Shown here: positions 18,083-46,302 of the stretch, in pieces
Layout of the letters: every line of letters starts with the position of its first letter
How positions within the stretch are numbered: the first letter of the stretch is position 1
From: Escherichia phage kvi
Strand: one strand, 5' to 3'
DNA length: 64,000 bases
Sequence record: MN850615.1
The notes under the pieces: model-generated
What the model saw: only the letters and a program-made list of their open reading frames with translations
Database searches by the model: none
What the model was told of the DNA's origin: nothing
Made by a program: the position numbers and the translations under genes

Positions 18083-18718
18083 TCAAGCGAATGTAGAAAG
18101 CAAACGTTTTGTTTCTTTCAGTTGTCGTTCAAGATCTTTGCGTTTCTCTTTAAGTTGCATTTTAGCATTATTTCGCTCTCTTGTAACCTCTTTATCAATG
18201 CTCTTATTCCAGTTATCAATATCAGAATAAGTTGGCATACCCAATTCTAGACCTAATGCGGTTGGATACAGGGTAACAGTCCATAAACCGCTAATCTTCT
18301 TAAATAGGTCGGGGTGTAGTGTACTATCTACATCTTCCGGTGTCAACTCTTTTTCTTCTTTCAGTGGTGGGATCTCGTCATATGGTTCCAGTGCATTTAC
18401 TTTAATATCAGATACCTCATCAAAGAATCCGCGTACATCCGCAGGAAATACACAAGCAATTTCCCAACCGTGATCACGCAGAGAAGTAATATTTTTCACT
18501 CCCCCACCATGTGTGATGATTGATGTGACATTGCCATCAAGGTCCACCGAATTTACGAGAAATGGCTTATCGTCTGTCAGATCATTATAAAACTGTGCTT
18601 CGGCTGTAGTCATCTCCAGAAACAGATCTCGGATCGGACGACCATCAGGTGCGTTACCTTCCTTGAGAGTATAAAAGCGACTTACGATCCATTTTGGCGG
18701 TAAAGCATTAGCGATCAT
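18083..18718 (-). CDS. hypothetical protein (211 aa)
   Basis: track ORF. Confidence 0.5.
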   Translation of the reverse strand: MIANALPPKWIVSRFYTLKEGNAPDGRPIRDLFLEMTTAEAQFYNDLTDDKPFLVNSVDLDGNVTSIITHGGGVKNITSLRDHGWEIACVFPADVRGFFDEVSDIKVNALEPYDEIPPLKEEKELTPEDVDSTLHPDLFKKISGLWTVTLYPTALGLELGMPTYSDIDNWNKSIDKEVTRERNNAKMQLKEKRKDLERQLKETKRLLSTFA

Positions 18719-18768: not shown

Positions 18769-20181
18769 TTAGAAAGTCATGTTATTTGCTAGCTCGTCGA
18801 GTTTTTCTCGTTTCTCGGCTTGCTGTGCGCTTTGTGGTTTAACTTGTGCATTCTCCTGATCTGCGATCTGGTTTGGGACTTCATACCAACGCTGATTGCC
18901 TTTTTTCACACCAACGTTAAACCGTGAATAATAGTTCTTATCACCGTAACGAGACTTGATCTGCTTCATGAGTTGGACGCCCATTTTAGCCAGGTCTTCG
19001 GTTTCGATAACACCCAACATAAAGTCGGCAGTAGCCGGAAGACCTGCTGATTCAGCGGTATCACTCATGTTAAGGTCGGAAGCATCCCAACCAGCACGGG
19101 TAGTTTGTGCCGCAGTCCAACCAACAACATCCCACTTAACAAAAAATCCGCGAAGTTCTTCCGCAATCGCTTTAACGAGAGTGTAGCTATTCTCAGAGTA
19201 TACACGCAAGCGAGACGATGCGCAAATCCCCAGATAGTCAACAATCACAACATCAGGTTTAAACTGTTTCTTGAGTCGCAATTCATTCATTAACGCCTCA
19301 AAGTGATTGGAGTTCGCGCCACCAGTCGGATACTGCTTGATCATCAATTTTCCAACCGGACGATCTCCGATCTTCTTATTCTTAACACGCTTCATACGTG
19401 CGGAATATTCCGCAAAAGAAACATTACCATTATCCAATTCATCTAATGTAATGTCAAGCAAGTTTGCGTCGATACGTTTGGCTACGACATGCTCTGCCAT
19501 CTCCATTGAGATATACAATACATCATAACCACATTCCATATAATCCGCAGCAAGAGAACATAATCCAAGCGATTTACCAACATTTACACCAGCAAGCAAC
19601 ACATTTAGCGTTTTTCTTTCCGCACCTCCTTTCGTGATTTTATTCAACATCGGCAGCTTAAACGGGATCTTATTCGCCTTAGTCTGATATAGCAAGAATC
19701 GTTTTTCAAAGTCATTAAACCAGTCATGACCTACATCAGAATCAAACGTAATGGATAGTGCTTCCTGCATGATCTCAGGAATAGCACCCTCACTCGGCAA
19801 TTTCTTATTCTGTTTCTCTTTTGGTAGTTGTGCGTTCGCCTGAATCTCTAGCGCCCGTGACATTGCATTATACATGGCACGGTCACGAATAAATTTTTCG
19901 GTTTCCTTCATTAACCAATCAAGGTCTTCCGGTGTATTCTCAAGCGAATCAAGAAGAGTTTTAGCCCCTTCATATGTTGTCTGATTGCCTCTCTCCTTGT
20001 CTAAAGCAATCTGTAATGCAGTTGGCGTAGGAATGTTGGAATATTCGTCTACGTGCTTTTTAATCAGCTTATAAATCAGTTTTTCTTCGTCTTCGGTGAA
20101 GTAGTCCGCTTTAAGGTGAGGCCATACATTCGTAAAGAATGCGCCATTGTAAATCAACTGTGAAAAGATAGTTTTAATCAT
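18769..20181 (-). CDS. 41: replicative DNA helicase (DnaB-like)
   Basis: 470 aa; Walker A ..GVNVGKS.., DnaB-family architecture. Confidence 0.9.
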   Translation of the reverse strand: MIKTIFSQLIYNGAFFTNVWPHLKADYFTEDEEKLIYKLIKKHVDEYSNIPTPTALQIALDKERGNQTTYEGAKTLLDSLENTPEDLDWLMKETEKFIRDRAMYNAMSRALEIQANAQLPKEKQNKKLPSEGAIPEIMQEALSITFDSDVGHDWFNDFEKRFLLYQTKANKIPFKLPMLNKITKGGAERKTLNVLLAGVNVGKSLGLCSLAADYMECGYDVLYISMEMAEHVVAKRIDANLLDITLDELDNGNVSFAEYSARMKRVKNKKIGDRPVGKLMIKQYPTGGANSNHFEALMNELRLKKQFKPDVVIVDYLGICASSRLRVYSENSYTLVKAIAEELRGFFVKWDVVGWTAAQTTRAGWDASDLNMSDTAESAGLPATADFMLGVIETEDLAKMGVQLMKQIKSRYGDKNYYSRFNVGVKKGNQRWYEVPNQIADQENAQVKPQSAQQAEKREKLDELANNMTF

Positions 20182-27674: not shown

Positions 27675-27739
27675 ATAATCACCTCTCACAAATTACATCA
27701 TTAAAACGGGGAGTATTTATACTCCCCACAAACATTATA

Positions 27740-36526: not shown

Positions 36527-36686
36527 ATTACTTAATGATACTTACTTTACCAGATCCGTGACAATGAGCGCAACACCCATCACCACGCAATCCTGTTCCG
36601 TTACAGTGTTTACACTTCTTCAACGGTAAAGCCATTATAGCAAATAAAGCAATAATGAACACCGAAACTAAATTCTCAATAATCAT
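36527..36686 (-). pseudogene. small membrane-anchored ORF with two CxxCxGxG motifs, disrupted by an apparent 1-nt frameshift
   Basis: frame 1 from ATG 36686 gives MIIENLVSVFIIALFAIMALPLKKCKHC then stops; removing one A from the aaa run at about 36598..36600 gives ..CKHCNGTGLRGDGCCAHCHGSGKVSIIK. Confidence 0.35.
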
Positions 36687-36945
36687 AAATCGCCCTCAGT
36701 TCTTTATAGCCTCCAATGTGCTCGTTGTCAATGAATATCTGGGGGTATACAAACCGGAGGCTCTTTGAGTTTAGCCTCCCCGCCAGTTCTTCAATCATAT
36801 CACGGTCGGGAATAATGTCAACCCCGACCTGCTTGAATACTGGTTTAAGTGTATACGGAATACCCAGATCATCCAGTAGCTTCATTGCACTAATACAACC
36901 ATAACAATGATAAGCCTCTTTCGGTATACCGTATATCTCGATCAT
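36676..36945 (-). CDS. nrdH: glutaredoxin-like protein (NrdH-like)
   Basis: 89 aa; CxxC-type active site (..CYGC..), C-terminal ..HIGGYKEL.. glutaredoxin fold signature; next to the nrdG/nrdD region. Confidence 0.7.
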   Translation of the reverse strand: MIEIYGIPKEAYHCYGCISAMKLLDDLGIPYTLKPVFKQVGVDIIPDRDMIEELAGRLNSKSLRFVYPQIFIDNEHIGGYKELRAIYDY

Positions 36946-37442
36946 TTCTCAGCCTTTAATCTTTCTAGTTCTTCTTCCAGTTCCTTGATCCGTTGGTCAC
37001 GTTCAAAGTCACGCTGTAACTTAGTGGCGAATACTCGTTTAAACTGATTGTAATCATCGATTTTAAACACTTCTTCTTCGCCATAGCGACGCACAGAAAC
37101 TTCGTAGTTATTGAAGAATTGTTGCATCATTGCTTCGGATGATAGCTCTGCTGATACCACTTTAAAATATTGATCTTCTGTAGGCGAAAACCAATTACAA
37201 GCATAAAGATAAACCTTTTCATTGTCTGGACACTGGTAAGCCTTACCATCGATTTCAATCACAGAAACATACTCAGGTATACTAGATGAATCAATAGCTA
37301 AGACTTTAAACGCACGGTCCCCGATAAACTCGGAGATCACACGATTCGCATCACTGGTTGCAAATGCTTTACGCGCTTGTTCGTTTTTCCACTGATAGGT
37401 CATACCAACAACAAACATATTACCAACCTCGCTCTTTACCAA
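36942..37442 (-). CDS. member of a tandem paralogous family (N-terminal beta-rich module with ..IEIDG.. and C-terminal helical tail)
   Basis: 166 aa; shares ..TYQWKNE.., ..VIEIDGKAY.., coiled-coil tail with neighbours. Confidence 0.5.
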   Translation of the reverse strand: MVKSEVGNMFVVGMTYQWKNEQARKAFATSDANRVISEFIGDRAFKVLAIDSSSIPEYVSVIEIDGKAYQCPDNEKVYLYACNWFSPTEDQYFKVVSAELSSEAMMQQFFNNYEVSVRRYGEEEVFKIDDYNQFKRVFATKLQRDFERDQRIKELEEELERLKAEK

Positions 37443-38244
37443 TCAAAAATTCAACTTCACGACGTTTAATGTCTTCTTGAAGGTCTTTAATCTTCTGGCG
37501 ATCTTGCATGATTTCATCCATCTTGTCAAGTGCCGCAATGAAATCATCGAAACGTTCAAAGGTTTTACCTTCATTTGCTTCGCCAAATTTAACCATTGTC
37601 AGGCCGTAACGACTACTAAACAGACGTTTCAACTGTCCAACGATCTTAGAATCAGTGGTTATAACTTCCAATTCTTCTACTTCACGAAAGAATTTTCTAT
37701 CAGAATCAATAAACCAGCTAGTTCCTTTATGGTCTCTATCTTCGGTTGCGCTCATTAGAGTATGGTCTTTACCATCAATTTCAATTACATCAATTTGCCC
37801 ACATGGACGAACATTTTTAACAGTAAAAGGTCTATAATTTATTGCTCGTGCAATAACATAATTAAGGTTAGATACGTTTTCAGCATAATGGCAGAAGTCG
37901 GTCATAGCATTCACATCTTTCCAAGTATAAGTTTTACCAACTTCCCATTTCTGGGGAACTTCTTCAACTTCACGAAAGAATTTTCTATCAAATGGACTAA
38001 AGAAATATGTTGCAGTCCAAATGTCTTTTCCTGTAGCAGTTTTCGCCGTATGATAAACACCGTCTAGCTCTATTGCATTAATCCAACCGTTACCCTCGAT
38101 CTCGATGATGGTAAATGGCTTGTCACCAATAGCTGCACTAATATCGCTGTTAAGTGGAGAAAGAACACCTTCTCCGTTAGTAATAAACTCAGTTTTAGCG
38201 TTTTCATCTTTCCAGGTGTAAGTTTTACCAATTTCCCATTTCAT
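37420..38244 (-). CDS. paralogous family member with two tandem copies of the N-terminal module
   Basis: 274 aa; MKWEIGKTYTWKDENAKTEF..IEIEG..FDRKFFREVEE then KWEVGKTYTWKDVNAMTDF..IEIDG..SDRKFFREVEE. Confidence 0.55.
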   Translation of the reverse strand: MKWEIGKTYTWKDENAKTEFITNGEGVLSPLNSDISAAIGDKPFTIIEIEGNGWINAIELDGVYHTAKTATGKDIWTATYFFSPFDRKFFREVEEVPQKWEVGKTYTWKDVNAMTDFCHYAENVSNLNYVIARAINYRPFTVKNVRPCGQIDVIEIDGKDHTLMSATEDRDHKGTSWFIDSDRKFFREVEELEVITTDSKIVGQLKRLFSSRYGLTMVKFGEANEGKTFERFDDFIAALDKMDEIMQDRQKIKDLQEDIKRREVEFLIGKERGW

Positions 38245-38256
38245 AATATATTCCCC

Positions 38257-38757
38257 TTAACCGATTTTATCAAGTTCGTTTAATGCTTTCTCTGCTTCCT
38301 GTATAGCTTGCACTCTTTCCGGCATTTTGTCAAGAAAATCTTTCAACTCTTCAAAACTGGAGATATGACGCAAGGCATTAGCACCGATAGCCGCATGTGA
38401 TTTGCATTCAAAGCGAATTTTATAATTATCCATCGCCAATTTGAGAAGGTCTATTAGATCATATTCATGACCAGGCAATAAAACTTCTTTGAAGCACGCT
38501 CGGTCGCCATCGGAAAACCATATATTATCACCAACATCGATAGAACTAATATAATCCCCTTCGTGATTATAGATTGAACGTACATTACCCCAACGGTCTA
38601 CCGTAGCGACAGTAAATGGTTTATCTAGATATGTAAACACACCATCAATATTAGGTTTTTGTTCGTAACGCCAACAATCACGCAAAATGCGCTTTTCGTC
38701 CTCACCAACCAACTTATATGTCTTCCCTTCTTCCCATTTCATAATATCATCTCTCAT
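38257..38757 (-). CDS. paralogous family member
   Basis: 166 aa; MKWEEGKTYK.., ..DRACFKEV.., helical tail. Confidence 0.5.
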   Translation of the reverse strand: MRDDIMKWEEGKTYKLVGEDEKRILRDCWRYEQKPNIDGVFTYLDKPFTVATVDRWGNVRSIYNHEGDYISSIDVGDNIWFSDGDRACFKEVLLPGHEYDLIDLLKLAMDNYKIRFECKSHAAIGANALRHISSFEELKDFLDKMPERVQAIQEAEKALNELDKIG

Positions 38758-39283
38758 TTTTGATACGTGATTCTAATTGGATCATACGGTCGCGCGTTTG
38801 CTTGTATTCGCGGATAGCACCGATCCGGCTAGGCATACCATCCAGTACGCTCTTAATACCTTCTATGGTAGTAATTTTGGCAATGCTATTATGTAACCCC
38901 ATCTTATCGATCAACTGAATGTCGTAGGCTTCCATAAGCAGACCCAGACGTTCTAAAGTTAGGTCTTCTTCTTTTTCTTCCGATTCTGGAATCTTAGGTT
39001 CAATAGTAACTTCGGTAAAGAAACGACGCTCACCCGACCAAAACCACACACCGGAACAGCCAATAGGGGATTCTTTTAACGTCATAGAGTCGAAATTACT
39101 ATTATTGGTAGTAATTTCTCTAACATCACCATCATCGTCAAGGTCTTCTACCCTAAACGGGCGACCAGCCAACAAGTCAACAATACATCTGTTAATAGAC
39201 GACGAAAATTTAGTCAGTTCGGCTTTCGACGCTTCGCATTCAATCTTGTAAGTTTTACCAACTTCCCATTCCATAATAATCAC
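38747..39283 (-). CDS. paralogous family member
   Basis: 178 aa; MEWEVGKTYK.., ..ERRFFTEV.., helical tail. Confidence 0.5.
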   Translation of the reverse strand: MIIMEWEVGKTYKIECEASKAELTKFSSSINRCIVDLLAGRPFRVEDLDDDGDVREITTNNSNFDSMTLKESPIGCSGVWFWSGERRFFTEVTIEPKIPESEEKEEDLTLERLGLLMEAYDIQLIDKMGLHNSIAKITTIEGIKSVLDGMPSRIGAIREYKQTRDRMIQLESRIKNER

Positions 39284-39284
39284 C

Positions 39285-39794
39285 TCAAATAATTTTCACT
39301 GGAATACTATTAACAATCTTGTATTGTACTTGATTGTCAGACCCCCGCCACGGCTTCTTCGTTGGCATATCTTTAATATAACGCCCATCGATGAACATGT
39401 CAACTGATTCTACAATTTTTCTTTGCTCATCATTCAATTGGTCAAGGGTATAACCAGACCATAGCCAAATATCTTTATTTGGCATCCATGATTTTACTTC
39501 ATCGATGATCCGCTGTACACCCTTTAAATTGCGTTTATACAATGGATCGCCACCTAAGAATGTTAGCCCCTGAATAAAATCAGGTCTAAGCAGATCCAGA
39601 ATCAATCCCATTGTATCATCGGTGAATGGTTCCCCGTTCTTAGGATTGAGTAGGCTAGCATTAAAGCAACCATCACATGCGTGTGAACATCCGGTAACGT
39701 AAAGGGAGACTCTCACTCCCTCACCGTTCACCATATCACAATCTTTAATATCGGCATAGCGTAGCTTGCCGTATGTATCAGAACTCATATTCAA
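39285..39794 (-). CDS. nrdG: anaerobic ribonucleotide reductase activating protein (radical SAM)
   Basis: 169 aa; cysteine cluster ..GCSHACDGCFN.. Confidence 0.85.
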   Translation of the reverse strand: MNMSSDTYGKLRYADIKDCDMVNGEGVRVSLYVTGCSHACDGCFNASLLNPKNGEPFTDDTMGLILDLLRPDFIQGLTFLGGDPLYKRNLKGVQRIIDEVKSWMPNKDIWLWSGYTLDQLNDEQRKIVESVDMFIDGRYIKDMPTKKPWRGSDNQVQYKIVNSIPVKII

Positions 39795-39930
39795 TTACCC
39801 CGAACTCGTTTACAATCTGCGCTTTATAGTAACCACCGCGAGATGCTAATAGATAAGCTGGGCTTAGGTATTCGTATTCACGGATTTCTACTTGTGCGTT
39901 TTCAGTTTCCCAAATCAGTAAAGTCCACAT
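39778..39930 (-). CDS. hypothetical small protein (50 aa)
   Basis: track ORF 39778..40005 trimmed to ATG 39930 with AGGAGAATCAAAT leader. Confidence 0.4.
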   Translation of the reverse strand: MWTLLIWETENAQVEIREYEYLSPAYLLASRGGYYKAQIVNEFGVIEYEF

Positions 39931-39972
39931 ATTTGATTCTCCTGTAAAGTTGTATCTCGTCTTGATGAATAT

Positions 39973-40002
39973 AGTATAGGGGATCGCGAGATCCCCGTCA
40001 AG
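39973..40002 (-). promoter_or_regulatory. sigma70-type promoter with palindromic spacer (TTGACG-ggggatctcgcgatcccc-TATACT)
   Basis: rc of 39997..40002 TTGACG; rc of 39973..39978 TATACT; palindromic spacer. Confidence 0.55.
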
Positions 40003-40005
40003 CAT

Positions 40006-40554
40006 TTATTTTAAATTTTTTCGAATGTATTCAGACCATTCCTTCCCTGTCATTTCGGACCCATTCTGGAAACTGAAATATTCATACGGCATCGAGTCAA
40101 GATAAAACAGGATCATACATCGCGCCATATAATACCAATCACGATTAAAGTAAACTACGTTATCGCCAGTACCATCAGCACCTTTATCATAACCATCGCG
40201 GGTACGGGCGACCCATTGAATAGTATCATTTTTCTCACGGATCGTAACAGGTTCCCAATATCCAGCACATCCAGCATGACCACACGAACAAGTCAGGAAA
40301 TATTGACCTTTTGCTTTGTTGTCATCCCATTCACGATGGATTGGTTCGATCTCGTGAAACAGTGCTAAGCAATCATGATTATGCAACACTGGCTTACCAT
40401 CAATCAATGCATGGAATGTATACAAACGACCAGTAGACAAATAGCTATCCTCACGCTCAACCAGTTCAATAGCAATCTTTTTAGCTCGTTCTTTGTGTCG
40501 TTGTGCTTTACGCTTACGGTTTAATGATTTCATATTCACCTCACACATTATCAA
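40006..40554 (-). CDS. hypothetical protein (182 aa)
   Basis: track ORF. Confidence 0.5.
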   Translation of the reverse strand: MIMCEVNMKSLNRKRKAQRHKERAKKIAIELVEREDSYLSTGRLYTFHALIDGKPVLHNHDCLALFHEIEPIHREWDDNKAKGQYFLTCSCGHAGCAGYWEPVTIREKNDTIQWVARTRDGYDKGADGTGDNVVYFNRDWYYMARCMILFYLDSMPYEYFSFQNGSEMTGKEWSEYIRKNLK

Positions 40555-41096
40555 AGGTCGCGATATAGTACATTATGAAAATGAGAACTTGCATTACCAA
40601 TATTGTAGATAATAAATTCTTCATCCGGCGCTTGCGCTACAAATTGAGTATGAGCAACCGCCACAACCTTAAAAATACGATCCGTGATCTTGTGTTTAAT
40701 TTCGGCTCCTACTTCCATAGGAACATATTCATGTGTTTCTGTTTCAGTCGCAAAACAGCCATCTTCTTCATAAGCACGAACAAATCGATCGCAATCAGTA
40801 CGCTTAACAAATTCAAGAGTATACAATTCTCGTGAATTGTCGGTATAGACTAATACAGAATTATTCTGATAGCGAATCACATACAGGTTATTATCATCGT
40901 CAATTACGCAAAAGCTACGGATTTGTGTTCCTTCGCCTTTACTCCAGCAGATATTAACCACAGTTCCTCTAATAAAAAAACTTTCCTTTAAATTAAAACT
41001 AGCCAATGTGCTAGCGTGCATTTTAACAACAACACCATCGCCAATTTCCAGTTTACGAAGTTTAACTTCTTTGTTCAGTACACAAAACATCATCAT
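40551..41096 (-). CDS. hypothetical protein (181 aa)
   Basis: track ORF. Confidence 0.5.
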   Translation of the reverse strand: MMMFCVLNKEVKLRKLEIGDGVVVKMHASTLASFNLKESFFIRGTVVNICWSKGEGTQIRSFCVIDDDNNLYVIRYQNNSVLVYTDNSRELYTLEFVKRTDCDRFVRAYEEDGCFATETETHEYVPMEVGAEIKHKITDRIFKVVAVAHTQFVAQAPDEEFIIYNIGNASSHFHNVLYRDL

Positions 41097-41124: not shown

Positions 41125-41152
41125 CATTATACATTAGCTAATCATGTTGTCA
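41125..41152 (-). promoter_or_regulatory. sigma70-type promoter (TTGACA-N16-TATAAT)
   Basis: rc of 41147..41152 TTGACA; rc of 41125..41130 TATAAT. Confidence 0.55.
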
Positions 41153-41161
41153 ACACCCCAA

Positions 41162-41190
41162 AACGAAAAAGCCGACCCTTTCGGATCGGC
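41162..41190 (-). terminator. rho-independent terminator after nrdD
   Basis: hairpin agccga..tcggct followed on minus by TTTTTCGTTTT. Confidence 0.6.
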
Positions 41191-41196
41191 TGAAAT

Positions 41197-43059
41197 TTAC
41201 ATGTGCTTAACGCGGTTTACCATCTCGGAGTGTTTCCCGTGGTTAAATGGACGCAGATCAACAGATCCAAGATATCCACTAACGCGACGGATAACATTCA
41301 TCTTTTCCAGATTGTCATTGCCGCAATCAGGACAAACAAAACCAGACTCGGTTGCTCTCATTTCCTTAGTAGATCCGCATACATGACATACATCAGAAGG
41401 AGTATTAACACCGAAGTAGTGCAATTTATCCATTGCATAGTCTACTACAGTTTCAAGACCTTTCAGGTTGTTTTTCATGTCTGGGAACTCAACATAAGAG
41501 ATCATGCCACCGGACGCCAGCCAGTGATAATCTTTCTCAAAGTCGATTTTCTCAAATGGAGTGACTTTCCGGTCTACGTCAAGGTGGAATGAGTTGGTGT
41601 ACCAGTCTTTATCGGTAGCACCCTTAACAATACCAAATTTCTCTCTGTCCAGTCGATTAAATCGATAGCAAAGACTCTCGGCTGGCGTACCGTAAAGACT
41701 AAACCCAAGTCCGGTTTCGTCCTTCCATTTTTCAGTATAATGACGCAAGATCTTAAGAATATGTTTACCGTATCGCTGCGCATCTTCCGAATCAAACGGA
41801 TGAACACCAAACAGGACGCTCAATACCTCATGTAAACCAATATATCCAAGAGAGATACTAGCGCGACCATCTTTCAGCACTTCCAAAATTTCATCGTTTT
41901 GATGAATACGGAAAAATGCACCTTCTGTATACAGCACCGGAGCAACATTGGCTTTAGCCCCTTTTAAAGCGTCTACGCGACTCATGAGCGCATCAAAGCA
42001 AATAGGCATACGATTAGCTAGCTCTTGTTCGAATAGCTCAATTCTGCGCATTACAGACGCTTTACCAGCACGACGAGCGGCAATAAGGGCAATACGCGGA
42101 AGATTCAGAGTCACAACACCTAAGTTATTACGTCCGTCTAATACTTCTTCGCCTTTCTCATTATGCCACACACCCAGGAAGCTACGACAACCCATCGGGC
42201 TAACCGGAACACTAGATCCAGTGATACTACGGTTATTCTTCGCAGAGATATAATCAGGGTAAAGACGCTTACTAGAACATTCCAATGCAAGTTGCTTAAT
42301 GTCGTAGTTCGGATCTTCCGGTTTAAGGTTTAATCCTTCTTCTAAGAACATCACCAGCTTAGGAAACACCGGAGTGATACCATCTTTACCTAAACCTTTA
42401 GTTCGAACGTTCAGGATCGCTTTCTGAATCAGTTTTTCTTCCCAGCTAGTACCCATACCAAAGGTTAAAGTCACAAAAGGAGTTTGACCGTTGGTGGAGA
42501 ACAAAGTGTTGATTTCATATTCCAACGCTTGATACCCGTCTAACGTTTCTTTTTCTGTCTTCTCTTGTGCATAGAGAGTATCAGCTTTGATTCCGTAGGT
42601 TTCGGCATCAGCAAGGTGTTTATGATATGTTTTCTTAACATACGGTGCTAACACCTGATCAATGTTTGCAATTGTGGTCCCGCCATATTGATGACTTGCC
42701 ACCTGTGCGATAATTTGAGCGGTTACAGCACAAGCAACGCCGATTGATTTCGGACTTTCGATTTGTGCGCTACCCAATTTAAAACCATTCTCTAGCATGT
42801 CTTTAAGATTAACAAGACAGCAGTTAGTAAACGGCATAGCGGGTGCATAATCCATATCATGATAATGAATATCACCGTCTACATGCGCTTTATAGATGTG
42901 CTCAGGTAACACGGTTTTAGCAATCTGTTTAGACACAGCACCAGCAATCAGATCTCGACGTGTCGGGAATGTTCGCGCGTCTTTGTTCGCGTTCTCTTTG
43001 CTTACTTCGTTTTCTTTACCCGTTGCGATCTCTGTAATGTCTTTGATTAGTTTTTCCAT
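41197..43059 (-). CDS. nrdD: anaerobic ribonucleoside-triphosphate reductase (glycyl radical enzyme), uninterrupted
   Basis: 620 aa; C-terminal glycyl-radical motif ..RVSGYLG.. and Zn-ribbon cysteines ..CHVCG..CPDCG.. Confidence 0.9.
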   Translation of the reverse strand: MEKLIKDITEIATGKENEVSKENANKDARTFPTRRDLIAGAVSKQIAKTVLPEHIYKAHVDGDIHYHDMDYAPAMPFTNCCLVNLKDMLENGFKLGSAQIESPKSIGVACAVTAQIIAQVASHQYGGTTIANIDQVLAPYVKKTYHKHLADAETYGIKADTLYAQEKTEKETLDGYQALEYEINTLFSTNGQTPFVTLTFGMGTSWEEKLIQKAILNVRTKGLGKDGITPVFPKLVMFLEEGLNLKPEDPNYDIKQLALECSSKRLYPDYISAKNNRSITGSSVPVSPMGCRSFLGVWHNEKGEEVLDGRNNLGVVTLNLPRIALIAARRAGKASVMRRIELFEQELANRMPICFDALMSRVDALKGAKANVAPVLYTEGAFFRIHQNDEILEVLKDGRASISLGYIGLHEVLSVLFGVHPFDSEDAQRYGKHILKILRHYTEKWKDETGLGFSLYGTPAESLCYRFNRLDREKFGIVKGATDKDWYTNSFHLDVDRKVTPFEKIDFEKDYHWLASGGMISYVEFPDMKNNLKGLETVVDYAMDKLHYFGVNTPSDVCHVCGSTKEMRATESGFVCPDCGNDNLEKMNVIRRVSGYLGSVDLRPFNHGKHSEMVNRVKHM

Positions 43060-43103: not shown

Positions 43104-43598
43104 TTATTTTACCAGTTCTGCTAATTCTTTTTCTTTAGCTTCTAGTTCAGCTTTAAGCTGTTTAATCTCTTGTCGCTTCTTATTAGCGGCTTCTTGCTTA
43201 CTATTTCGGATAACCTGATCTAGATACAACTCCCAATCCTGAATATTTTTGATAATGTAACCGTCAACATTAATTGGTCGGAGATTCAGTACAGCTTCCA
43301 GTTTAGTTGCAAAAACTTTAATTGCTGGTGTGAAGTATTCATACTCGTTATCTTCAAACCAATAACCTAGACTTGCATTCTCAATACGAAGATGAAGTTT
43401 AAGATCAAGGTCTTTATCATCGGTATATAGGTCTTTTACACACCCCATAGAATTAACAACAACTTTAAAACGAATTTTATCTACACCACCAAACACATCT
43501 TCAAGAATATCAGCAATTGAGCTATTAGCGCAAGATTGGTCGCTGAATGCGTCAAGATTTTCTTTAGTTACAGTATACCAAACATCTTGTACCCACAT
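43104..43598 (-). CDS. hypothetical protein with C-terminal coiled coil (164 aa)
   Basis: track ORF; K/E-rich heptad tail. Confidence 0.5.
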   Translation of the reverse strand: MWVQDVWYTVTKENLDAFSDQSCANSSIADILEDVFGGVDKIRFKVVVNSMGCVKDLYTDDKDLDLKLHLRIENASLGYWFEDNEYEYFTPAIKVFATKLEAVLNLRPINVDGYIIKNIQDWELYLDQVIRNSKQEAANKKRQEIKQLKAELEAKEKELAELVK

Positions 43599-43652
43599 AA
43601 TATAATCCTCTCGTTGTTAAGTGGGAGTATTATAGCATACTCCCTTCGCATG

Positions 43653-44831
43653 TCAAACACTAACTTTTTTCTTTACTGCTTTCACCTTCTGGCGAATTGC
43701 TCGAATCTCTTCGATCTCTTTTTCAGTCTCTTTAACAATTTCTTTGCGATTCTGAATATCTGTATCGAGATTATCATCAAGTTTAGGCAGCATGTCAATC
43801 AAGAACTTTTTAAGGTCTTTCAGGTTTCGAATAACAGCACCTTCGCCCATTACCGCAACACCCACACCATCCGGCAGATCACCAAACAGCTTAACCAGTT
43901 CAGACAGATGATCATGATCTTCTAGTGCTTCTTCCGGTTCAGATGGCAGTTCAACAAAGTTATAACGTTCATCATTGCTGATCAAGTGATACCAGCAAAG
44001 CCCGAAAGATTTCGGTGTATATTCTACACCATCAATTTCAACCGCGTCAACACTTCCATAATCATCTACTTTAGTTACCTTAAATCCTTGTCCCAGCTTT
44101 TGAACAATTTCAACAACATGACTTGATACAGTTTCAGCGGTAAACCAATATGGCAAATTATGCTGATTTGGCTTGTAGCGTTCACCTACTTTAAATCTCT
44201 GACCATCCGCTTGCATAGCATGAAATTGTTGTTTCGTGATTTCCGCGAAGTATTCAAATTCGCTACCGTCAAACAAGCAATTCCATTGATCACAAAAACG
44301 ATCTGCCTTAACGGTTTCACCTTTCGCGGTGATCATGGTAGCTGATCCGTGCAATTCTTCTTCAACTAAAAAGCCATATTCGACAAAATCAACAAGTTTC
44401 ATGGCTTCTTTGTGCTCTGGGTCATGCTCTCCCCAGAATCGCTTAAATTCTTGCAAACCTTCTGGGGTAAACGAATAACATTTACCTTTTTCAAAGTAAG
44501 TCGGCATTGCATCCTCTTTCTTGTTCATCGCTTCGTATGCCTCTTTTGAGATACGTTTAAAGTATTTGCGCTCATTGTGCATAATCATAGTAGACCAATA
44601 ATAAACGATATCCTCAGCGGAATAAACTACATCTCCAGCTTCAATAGTAATAACATGACCGTGGTCATCTTTTTCTAATACTTTAAAGCCCTTTTCTACG
44701 ATTTCAGCAACCCGAATATGACCACGGCGCGAAGCATCGGTCAGAATAATTGAATAGCGAGAAAAGTCTAGAAACTCATCTTTACCGCCTTCACGGAATG
44801 CATAGTAATGACCTTCAAAGAATTTAGCCAT
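43653..44831 (-). CDS. large member (392 aa) of the paralogous ..EIDG.. family
   Basis: contains ..VDAVEIDGVEY.., ..ERYNFVEL.., ..NERKYFKRI.. and helical tail. Confidence 0.5.
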   Translation of the reverse strand: MAKFFEGHYYAFREGGKDEFLDFSRYSIILTDASRRGHIRVAEIVEKGFKVLEKDDHGHVITIEAGDVVYSAEDIVYYWSTMIMHNERKYFKRISKEAYEAMNKKEDAMPTYFEKGKCYSFTPEGLQEFKRFWGEHDPEHKEAMKLVDFVEYGFLVEEELHGSATMITAKGETVKADRFCDQWNCLFDGSEFEYFAEITKQQFHAMQADGQRFKVGERYKPNQHNLPYWFTAETVSSHVVEIVQKLGQGFKVTKVDDYGSVDAVEIDGVEYTPKSFGLCWYHLISNDERYNFVELPSEPEEALEDHDHLSELVKLFGDLPDGVGVAVMGEGAVIRNLKDLKKFLIDMLPKLDDNLDTDIQNRKEIVKETEKEIEEIRAIRQKVKAVKKKVSV

Positions 44832-44887
44832 AATATAATCCTCTCGTTGTTTAGACGGGAGTATCTTACTACTCCCGTTTCATCATG

Positions 44888-45472
44888 TCAAGCGTTAAAT
44901 GACTTTTGGATCTCTTTCAGTTCAGCTACTTTATCGGCGCTGAATTTAGCGTAGGCATCATGTCGAATAATTTCACTTTCAAGAAAGGTTTCCAGCCGAG
45001 ATCTATTTTCAATAAGGAACTCTTTCAGGTCTTCCGCGTTCTTGATAAAGATTTTATTGTCGGTAATGTCATCTTCAATCGCAAAGGAGATAGAGCGAAC
45101 TTTACCAAACAAGTTAATCAGATCTTCCAGCGATTCTTCATTCTTAACTGGTTTCATTTCTTCAAACTGCTTTTTAGTGATGCGTTTAAAGTATTTGCGC
45201 TCGTTTGCAGCAATCAGAACAGATGCACCTTCATACCCATGAGTTTCTACCAGATACACACGCCCCATCGCATCAACAGTGAGAACTTTAAAGCCGTTAC
45301 AAAGCACGTCATACAAGAACTTATTATGTTGCGGACATCGTTTGATAAATTCTGCGGCTGTTTCTGCATTACGGAAAGTGTAATAACGACCTCGTTCAAA
45401 AACAGCATCATTTGAAGACTTAGCCGGATACAATTTATACGTTTTCTGTACCATAATATAATCCTCTATCAT
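44888..45472 (-). CDS. paralogous family member (194 aa)
   Basis: shares ..NGFKVL.VDAMG.. and ..ANERKYFKRITKKQFEEM.. with 43653..44831. Confidence 0.5.
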   Translation of the reverse strand: MIEDYIMVQKTYKLYPAKSSNDAVFERGRYYTFRNAETAAEFIKRCPQHNKFLYDVLCNGFKVLTVDAMGRVYLVETHGYEGASVLIAANERKYFKRITKKQFEEMKPVKNEESLEDLINLFGKVRSISFAIEDDITDNKIFIKNAEDLKEFLIENRSRLETFLESEIIRHDAYAKFSADKVAELKEIQKSFNA

Positions 45473-45801
45473 TTCACTAATTGAACAGCACGGAACAGAA
45501 TGCGCTCACACGGAAGCAGCATAAATTCCCAACGCGGATCAAAGTCTTTAGCGGTGTATGTTTTCCCATCAACCGAGATTTCACTTACATAACCAACAGG
45601 TGACACTTTAAGAACAGTAAACCCATTCTTGATGACTTCGTAAGTATCTTTCACCCCTTCGTATTCATCATCTAAGAAGTCTTTATGTGCTTGCTCAGAT
45701 TTAAAAACATAGGCCACACCGGATTTAAACATCTTACGCATTGTTGATTCTCCTTCTTGATTAGATGGGAGTATTTTACTACTCCCATTTCTTATTGTCA
45801 A
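45469..45801 (-). CDS. paralogous family member (110 aa)
   Basis: ..NGFTVLKVSPVGYVSEISVDGKTY.. pattern. Confidence 0.45.
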   Translation of the reverse strand: MTIRNGSSKILPSNQEGESTMRKMFKSGVAYVFKSEQAHKDFLDDEYEGVKDTYEVIKNGFTVLKVSPVGYVSEISVDGKTYTAKDFDPRWEFMLLPCERILFRAVQLVK

Positions 45802-45804
45802 CTA

Positions 45805-46278
45805 CTATCTTAATCTTTGTATGAATTGTTTCTTATACTTCTTCGTGATCTCTTCTCTTGTATCCGCGTCACAGTAATCGAAACCTTCTGCGTCCATAAT
45901 AGCAACCATCTCCGCTCGTGTCAAGCGTGAAAATCGTTTTACTTTATCAACAGCATATTGAGGATGTAAATGATTGTTGGTGTAGTCTCCTTTGATGTAA
46001 TTAACATAGTTTGTAGCCCAAACAACGAAATCAGCACCTAAAGCACCAACACCAAACCGTTTAAAGTCTCCGGTCAACGATCCTTCTAGGCGGTTGCAAC
46101 ACGAATGAAGCAATCCCCTTACGCGGCCTTGCCCTTTCCCATCTAGATCATGATCATGGTCAAGATGGTTTTTGCTCATATCCTCAAAAAGTGGCAATTG
46201 ACAAAGGGGGCAAATGCCCCCCTGTTTTTCGAATAGTTCTTGTTTGTACTCTTTAGCACTCTTAGCAGTCAGTAACAT
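45805..46278 (-). CDS. 49: endonuclease VII (Holliday junction resolvase)
   Basis: ATG 46278 gives 157 aa; ..CPLCQ..NHLDHDHDL..GLLHSCCN.. His-Me/zinc motifs as in T4 endoVII. Confidence 0.85.
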   Translation of the reverse strand: MLLTAKSAKEYKQELFEKQGGICPLCQLPLFEDMSKNHLDHDHDLDGKGQGRVRGLLHSCCNRLEGSLTGDFKRFGVGALGADFVVWATNYVNYIKGDYTNNHLHPQYAVDKVKRFSRLTRAEMVAIMDAEGFDYCDADTREEITKKYKKQFIQRLR

Positions 46279-46302
46279 AAATTCACCCTCCAAAGAAGGT
46301 AT

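Follow-up and report, generated by a model that had tools for sequence, protein, structure and literature searches.

The genes considered here are most closely related to GoF (ComC-alpha, 141 aa), Frd.2 and MotB.1 of phage T4, three single-module genes that Kim et al. 2025 (PMC12152347) defined as a family with an ‘LSm-like’ fold in the N-terminal domain and with variable C-terminal domains. GoF is made early and in abundance, can be dispensed with in the laboratory and runs as monomer and dimer; a reporter RNA with the gene 41 leader is stabilised by its D25Y variant but not by the wild type, independently of Hfq and with a raised mRNA half-life. Knock-down of T4 frd.2 lowers fitness, and frd.2 was the sole T4 gene of unknown function scored ‘Fit’ in CRISPRi-ART (PMC11879866). 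A second described system is the promoter (early) stem-loop, or PeSL, which, as Arbiol et al. 2010 (PMC2839356) showed, acts as promoter and attenuator in phages RB49 and phi1 and mediates modular shuffling. Both systems meet in a window of 64,000 nt from Escherichia phage kvi (MN850615.1), in which two clusters of open reading frames (ORFs), at 36942-39283 and 43653-45801, bracket the anaerobic ribonucleotide reductase genes nrdD and nrdG. These genes add new members, of more elaborate architecture, to a phage family that was described only lately and is annotated in part, and they are not a new kind of system; in their membership of the GoF/Frd.2/MotB.1 family and in the domain architecture laid out below we have high confidence.

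An earlier note on this DNA had described three ORFs of 392, 194 and 110 aa on the - strand at 43653-45801 as the second cluster of one paralogous family on the far side of nrdD, and the ORFs and their common motifs are indeed present: CNGFKVLTVDAMG and NERKYFKRI in the 194-aa ORF, EKGFKVLEKDDHG, NERKYFKRI and GFKVTKVDDYGSVDAVEIDG in the 392-aa ORF, and NGFTVLKVSPVG and ISVDGKTY in the 110-aa ORF. For the building of hidden Markov models (HMMs), the proteins were divided into 11 N-terminal modules of ~95 aa and their tails, and cluster-specific HMMs, each trained on one cluster only, were run over the window’s full set of 1029 six-frame fragments. The HMM from the five modules of 36942-39283 matches the 392-aa (E 5.7e-13), 110-aa (1.1e-8) and 194-aa (7e-5) ORFs as well as a further ORF of 164 aa (3.4e-4), and the reverse HMM, from 43653-45801 only, matches 4/4 genes of the other cluster (1.8e-10, 1.8e-6, 2.1e-6 and 2e-3), with pairwise BLASTP among the cluster ORFs giving 25-36% identity. 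Because the cluster-specific HMMs find each other’s genes, homology between the clusters, on which the note had let its claim depend, exceeds chance, and these reciprocal matches together with shared PHROG profiles support the view that the two clusters are paralogous. The note had thus read the paralogy correctly, but it did not recognise the family as that of GoF and Frd.2.

Sequence searches of Pfam, NCBIfam and the Protein Data Bank with the cluster proteins returned nothing meaningful. PHROGs, on the other hand, place the 392-aa (1e-213) and 194-aa (3e-98) proteins in phrog_8944, ‘goF mRNA metabolism modulator’, and link all members through phrog_5347, 622 and 3710 and the goF families 13003 and 2980. 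RefSeq labels RB49p058 (frd.2; the ortholog of the 392-aa gene) and RB49p059 as goF modulators, and the other six nrd-flanking genes as ‘hypothetical’. An HMM made from the 11 window modules only, run over T4 1-50000 and 130001-168903 in six-frame translation, aligns over the full domain with T4 GoF (E 7.5e-11, hmm 4-97) and with T4 Frd.2 (E 1.7e-3, hmm 4-95), and reaches T4 MotB.1 below significance (E 0.34). The resemblance to the T4 proteins therefore includes significant profile similarity (to GoF and Frd.2) over a ~90-aa N-terminal five-stranded barrel, and extends to a flexible linker leading into a variable C-terminal part, an acidic composition, structural neighbours of the FeoA and IdeR/SloR SH3 type, and probably a setting of early-promoter genes (here by consensus) in dispensable regions of T4-type phages. 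The differences lie in number, architecture and place: nine genes with 12 modules in one genome against the three single-module genes of T4, two- and three-module proteins, a bare 90-aa module, tails ending in a long charged helix, and a position at the 49/nrdD and nrdG/nrdH junctions, at which T4 has none of its homologues, these lying near genes 39, motB and frd. Unlike T4, the genus of the window phage, Krischvirus, also stands outside the subfamily Tevenvirinae in its taxonomy line. In the text of Kim et al. (PMC12152347), the 210-sequence tree aside, RB49, tandem modules and paralogous clusters are not mentioned.

The count of seven members given in the note proved too low, because the 164-aa ORF and another of 211 aa join the seven, which brings the family in the window to nine genes and 12 modules, 8/9 of the genes flanking nrdD/nrdG. 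All are on the - strand. Two of the three lengths given for the 43653-45801 cluster also need revision: 392 aa stands, but 194 and 110 aa are likely 188 and 90 aa, judging from the leader GAGGATTATATT-ATG and its variants and from the lengths of orthologs, which put the probable starts at 45454 and 45741, respectively, and, on the same basis, at 39274 (175 aa), 38742 (161 aa) and 37418 (158 aa) in the other cluster. The 90-aa gene (45469..45741), with a Shine-Dalgarno sequence and an ATG at 45741, is one tail-less N-module (module HMM 3e-29; phrog_16115 8e-60) whose orthologs also have 90 aa (P0015, RB49p060); the 110-aa ORF begins at an upstream TTG at 45801. The 188-aa gene (44888..45454) encodes an N-module, a linker and a helical tail, and its ortholog RB49p059 has 188 aa too. 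The 392-aa gene (43653..44831) consists of three tandem N-modules (44517-44831, 44208-44516 and 43917-44207, for aa 1-105, 106-208 and 209-305) and a helical tail (43653-43916); its three HMM domains (3.6e-30, 3.6e-29 and 3.6e-22), along with a threefold repeat of secondary structure in its AlphaFold2 model, bear out the suspicion that it holds more than one module. Its orthologs are 391-392 aa long and at least 83% identical across eight clusters representing >300 database sequences. The eighth and most divergent member, the 164-aa gene (43104..43598), lies immediately upstream of nrdD and has one N-module and a charged helix; it scores 3.4e-4 with the HMM not trained on it, as given above, and 1.9e-21 with the full HMM, and falls in phrog_15067 with a weak match to phrog_3710.

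The cluster beyond nrdG comprises the 175-aa gene (38747..39274; module and tail), which starts 8 nt past the nrdG stop, the 161-aa gene (38257..38742; module and tail), the 274-aa gene (37420..38244; two tandem modules, seen as two HMM domains, and a tail) and the 158-aa gene (36942..37418; module and tail), after which comes the glutaredoxin gene nrdH. The ninth member, the 211-aa gene (18083..18718), is isolated between the genes for the gp41 helicase and the gp61 primase and is found at E 4.6e-7 (hmm 5-99) by a combined HMM that lacked it in training and at 1.8e-6 by the HMM from 36942-39283 only. Its ortholog in phage ECD7 is named ‘Dc2’. T4 gp61.2 (208 aa; T4 19132-19758, L001) occupies the same 41-61 interval and was considered as a homolog, but it shares 8-20% identity with the modules and gives no HMM match. 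A 106-aa ORF at 61981-62301 (-) matches the module HMM only marginally and in part (E 0.002-0.02 over ~40/100 positions) and is not counted; the same leader stands upstream of it, as AATGTGAGGATTATATT-ATG. The RB49 genome outside the window, scanned over 39.6-89.6 kb and 110-158 kb with the virion-gene stretch at 89.6-110 kb excluded, yielded no further member.

Among 1.84 billion representative proteins, searched exhaustively with HMMER, only 95 clusters reached E<=1e-3, most of them 130-270 aa long with an N-terminal module and a C-terminal extension of ~73 aa; seven of the 95 have the two-module architecture, and the three-module type is restricted to Krischvirus-like sequences. Several large repeat proteins in that search (P0058, P0076 and others) were set aside as artefacts of summed weak repeat matches. 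At BLAST level, a search of phage genomes found the subfamily in Krischvirus only, bar one weak match in a Yersinia phage.

The module is predicted to be a ~95-aa SH3/FeoA-like five-stranded beta-barrel whose strands 1 and 2 are separated by a pair of inserted helices. In the AlphaFold2 model of the 188-aa protein, from a 37-sequence alignment, the mean predicted local distance difference test score (pLDDT) is 75 and rises to ~85-95 at residues 20-100, where a strand (24-27) is followed by helices 30-39 and 41-51 and by strands 55-60, 66-70, 77-81 and 89-92; a low-confidence linker (119-133, pLDDT<50) then leads to helices 140-149 and 151-187. The model of the 392-aa protein repeats this strand and helix pattern three times, as three barrels before a 55-residue terminal helix, with a predicted template modelling score of 0.39 and linkers at pLDDT<50 that include 298-306 and 322-333. 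The claim that all three proteins of the cluster end in helical tails is accordingly right for the 188- and 392-aa proteins and wrong for the tail-less 90-aa one. Across the window, 7/9 proteins have a flexible linker and a small helical tail after the barrel or barrels, with a long, highly charged final helix. The only residues conserved over the 12 modules belong to the core: Y, F and F never change and V and G hardly do, so that a fixed core goes with a surface free to vary.

Foldseek searches of BFVD gave 50 matches at E<=1e-3, to proteins of T4-type phages of Escherichia, Serratia, Aeromonas, Acinetobacter, Citrobacter, Cronobacter, Erwinia, Edwardsiella, Pectobacterium and Proteus, one of them annotated GoF (3e-6). 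Among proteins of other kinds, FeoA is the best structural match, next to the SH3-like C-terminal domains of DtxR, IdeR and SloR (CATH 2.30.30.90), but the likeness is one of fold only: the metal-ligand residues are not conserved in the window modules, the biological context is unrelated, and the window proteins did not match the FeoA profile (PF04023) in the Pfam search. With Hfq and the Sm-LSm proteins the family shares a small, bent, five-stranded antiparallel barrel, as well as the effect of GoF D25Y on mRNA stability and the self-association reported for GoF. Those proteins have a single N-terminal helix, however, whereas the window modules have helices between strands 1 and 2, and the window proteins are acidic and are not predicted to assemble into rings. 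Confident multimer models were not obtained by Kim et al. 2025 (PMC12152347) either. On helix topology, nearest neighbours and ring oligomers, then, the modules do not class with Hfq or the Sm-LSm proteins.

The window comes from a Krischvirus (RB49-like, T4-type coliphages; Straboviridae), to other members of which its cluster region is 96-98% identical in DNA, and all genes of the nrd region are on the - strand. Read 5' to 3' on that strand, gene 49 (endonuclease VII; 45805-46293) is followed by the three ORFs at 43653-45801, the 164-aa ORF, nrdD (41197-43059), three unrelated ORFs and nrdG (39285-39794), and then by the four ORFs of 36942-39283 and nrdH. In T4, nrdD directly adjoins gene 49, and 55.8 is the sole gene between nrdG and nrdH, so that both clusters are insertions relative to T4. 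The 49/nrdD and nrdG/nrdH junctions would thus be the insertion sites of the two clusters within a hyperplastic region.

A near-identical cassette stands upstream of the 90-, 392- and 164-aa genes, each copy with a TTGACA, a stem-loop over the -10, a ribosome-binding site and the ATG. In the cassette of the 90-aa gene (45742..45804, -), TTGACA-17-TAAAAT (45801-45773) is overlain by a GGGAGTA..TACTCCC stem-loop at 45767-45786; that of the 392-aa gene (44832..44891, -) has TTGACA-17-TAAGAT, a stem-loop at 44857-44876 and the leader AACGAGAGGATTATATT-ATG; and that of the 164-aa gene (43599..43656, -) has a perfect TTGACA-16-TATAAT with TG, a stem-loop at 43623-43644 and the same leader as the 392-aa cassette, the sequence AACAACGAGAGGATTATATT being common to 2/3 cassettes. 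The sigma-70 consensus promoters upstream of the three genes match at 10-12 of 12 positions. The GGGAGTA..TACTCCC stem-loop occurs in 4 copies in the 64 kb, three of them at the cluster, with 0 expected by chance. By their makeup the three cassettes qualify as PeSLs as defined by Arbiol et al. 2010 and as predicted promoters, for the PeSLs of RB49 and phi1 are likewise intergenic, combine a strong sigma-70-like promoter with a G-rich/C-rich stem-loop between or over the -35 and -10 and with a Shine-Dalgarno sequence and ATG, and flank variable ORFs. The accessible text of that paper (PMC2839356) lists nrdD as a PeSL-associated plastic locus and, beyond this, does not describe the cluster cassettes or the protein family that they flank.

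The fourth copy of the stem-loop (27709-27726) stands between gene 45 (sliding clamp) and gene 44 (clamp loader) and not in any hyperplastic region. The TGA with which the 188- and the 392-aa gene each end is part of the TTGACA -35 hexamer of the next PeSL (44888-44891 and 43653-43656, -), so that the gene end and the following promoter form one unit. The leader GAGG(A/T)TTATATT-ATG occurs seven times on the - strand (7460, 20493, 43596, 44829, 48961, 56070 and 62299; <=3 mismatches of the 20-mer, 0 expected), which would appear to be a ribosome-binding context common to many early genes of the phage. The 188-aa gene is without a promoter of its own and starts 14 nt past the stop of the 90-aa gene. 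The cluster at 36942-39283 is probably co-transcribed with nrdG and nrdH, since only 8 nt separate it from the nrdG stop and it continues into nrdH.

How such clusters arose and change can be read in part from the modules themselves and in part from sister phages, and on the question raised in the note, duplication in situ versus shuffling, they show both. In a neighbour-joining tree of the modules, in which deeper nodes are unresolved, the two modules of the 274-aa gene pair at bootstrap 94 (50% identity) and the adjacent 158-aa gene joins them at bootstrap 71, a grouping that indicates local duplication. Phage KFS-EC, for its part, is without the 90-, 188- and 175-aa genes and keeps nrdD/G. 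Its 392-aa gene is preceded by a chimeric cassette whose left half is the PeSL on the gene 49 side and whose right half is the 392-aa PeSL, with the crossover within the stem-loop, exactly at the deletion of the 90- and 188-aa genes, as the model in PMC2839356 predicts. Unlike in that model, recombination here also uses paralogous coding repeats: the KFS-EC gene after the lost 175-aa gene begins with MEWE, the start of the 175-aa protein, fused to an RB49p050-type body, a recombination between paralogous 5' ends. In phage E26 the 274-aa gene has shrunk to 178 aa by in-frame loss of module 2, the repeated DRKFFREVEE being the point at which module 1 passes into the tail, and one-module variants, with module 1 only or module 2 only, occur also in P0009-P0018.

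Replacement of modules is equally visible. The N-module of the 161-aa gene is swapped in RB49 and KFS-EC while its tail is kept, the tails being 100% identical and the N-modules 41% identical in the comparison with RB49p050, and N-modules diverge more than tails generally (84% versus 99% identity for the 188-aa gene). The 188-aa orthologs in other Krischviruses carry two alternative mid-tail versions, KVRSISFAIEDDITDNKIFIKNAEDLKEF or KSSLVSLTLEDFSFDNQLYFKNADDLKDF, on similar N-modules, a further mosaic boundary within the gene. With a duplicated module pair in the 274-aa gene, and with genes and modules deleted and replaced among near-identical sister phages, both in-situ duplication and shuffling take place, and homologous recombination of PeSL with PeSL and of one paralogous module with another would enlarge or trim the clusters and exchange their modules.

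Our reading of these genes as a whole, which we think probable though by a measured degree, is that they are early, dispensable accessory genes of the GoF/Frd.2/MotB.1 family whose barrels modulate mRNA fate and whose tails make them multivalent. They would be driven by strong sigma-70 early promoters, three of which are the PeSL cassettes. Each barrel would be a binding module with a variable surface around a fixed hydrophobic core, and the proteins would, by homology with GoF D25Y, modulate the fate of phage or host mRNA, either by binding RNA directly or by binding part of the RNA decay or termination machinery. The long charged helix of the tail would probably mediate self-association, and multivalency would then come from tandem modules and oligomerising tails together. 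The RNA-related role taken specifically is a tentative proposal that we put at somewhat less than an even chance. The G84R gain-of-function site of GoF maps to the ER[K/R]xF motif, at which K or R is natural in 5/12 window modules, a small lead.

Several observations weigh against this reading. We know of no wild-type member of the family for which a function has been shown, and wild-type GoF and MotB.1 had little effect on reporter RNA. Of the window’s nine proteins, seven have an acidic pI of 4.8-5.2 (GoF 4.6, Frd.2 4.4), a poor fit for general RNA binding. Homology between the tails of the two clusters was not detected by HMMs from either single cluster, and hhalign gave P 0.01 and a probability of 4%; in the 392- and 194-aa proteins the phrog_5347 alignment carries on into the tail, a hint that we do not claim as tail homology. 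The heptad test for a coiled coil in the tails gave p 0.02-0.67 and was significant in just 2/7, so that we speak of a long charged helix instead. The early timing, finally, is based only on consensus promoter matches.

Some of the same observations would suit proteins that do not bind RNA at all. The modules may instead be protein-binding adaptors or inhibitors, with variable barrels docking on different host proteins (for example a defence, protease, nucleoid or transcription factor), tails that oligomerise for avidity, and a diversity that reflects an arms race. The acidity of most members, the SH3/Tudor/FeoA fold class and the lack of a clear RNA effect of wild-type GoF would all agree with this, as would N-modules that are replaced or diverge faster than tails among near-identical phages, genes that are apparently dispensable one by one and variable in copy number, and the location in a hyperplastic region. 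GoF pull-downs, however, recovered essentially GoF alone, no partner is known, no anti-defence match turned up, though none was sought, and the sole known phenotype of the family is one of mRNA level or stability; we regard the adaptor explanation as possible but rather unlikely. It is quite improbable that the genes encode accessory factors for the anaerobic ribonucleotide reductase whose genes lie between them, such as FeoA-like iron or Fe-S factors for the radical S-adenosylmethionine activase NrdG, a function suggested by the eight members flanking nrdD/nrdG, by the seeming co-transcription of one cluster with nrdG and nrdH and by the rank of FeoA as best structural match. There is no Pfam match to FeoA or to any other family and no conserved column of His, Cys or acidic ligands, the T4 homologues lie elsewhere, and KFS-EC retains nrdD/G while missing three members, all of which makes a tie to NrdD/NrdG or to iron unlikely; nrdD, moreover, was already known from PMC2839356 as a PeSL-associated plastic locus.

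A different kind of explanation needs no function, namely that the ORFs are selfish or neutral cargo of mobile PeSL cassettes, kept by recombination and not by benefit to the phage. PeSL-flanked ORFans come and go and can form mini-circles, according to PMC2839356, and presence or absence of the genes varies among close relatives here as well. Yet the 392-aa gene has kept its length and at least 83% identity over its eight clusters, in 58 phage genomes no member has a broken frame or has lost its ribosome-binding site or the conserved core of the fold, the family is widespread in T4-type phages of many hosts, T4 frd.2 has its fitness effect, and only 3/9 genes have a PeSL of their own; we give the cargo explanation very little credence. 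Accessory genes of the GoF/Frd.2/MotB.1 family acting on mRNA fate stay our preferred reading.

The genes between and beside the two clusters show features of their own. Here nrdD is one unbroken 620-aa ORF, whereas T4 nrdD is interrupted by the I-TevII group I intron. Straight after the nrdD stop in the window, a strong hairpin with a T-run (AGCCGATCCGAAAGGGTCGGCT TTTTCGTTTT; 41126-41191, -) is followed by a perfect TTGACA-16-TATAAT promoter that leads into a 181-aa ORF (40551-41096), a terminator-plus-promoter unit unlike the three cluster PeSLs in form. The three ORFs between nrdD and nrdG (181, 182 and 75 aa; 39778-41096, -) are outside the module family, and T4 has the homing endonuclease gene mobC there; the 182-aa ORF contains a Cys-rich stretch, CSCGHAGCAGYW. 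At 36528-36686 (-), a 52-aa ORF opens with a hydrophobic N-terminal helix; the sequence after it, CKHCNGTGLRGDGCCAHCHGSG, looks like two DnaJ-type CxxCxGxG zinc-finger repeats, and the ORF may encode a small membrane-anchored zinc-finger protein.

A bolder version of our reading, which we consider unlikely, is that the genes form a modular, fast-diversifying arsenal in which barrels, single, paired or triple, are interchangeable and carried on oligomerising tails, each assembly capturing a different RNA or host factor. If this were true, three modules in a dimer would present six barrels, a valency like that of Hfq, and specificity would be renewed by cassette exchange at PeSLs and at the borders of paralogous modules. 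The paralogs with K or R at the position of GoF G84R could then be native mRNA stabilisers. The GoF family has only recently been recognised, and with nine paralogs in one genome the targets of the barrels and the role of the tails can be approached by comparison. Useful natural variants are at hand for this in the one-, two- and three-module forms, the tail-less module, the sister-phage deletions and the N-modules swapped onto identical tails. For specialists in T4-type phages the value lies in this comparative material, set in a known type of plastic region, and the region itself is a clean example of PeSL cassettes and paralogous repeats jointly remodelling a hyperplastic region.

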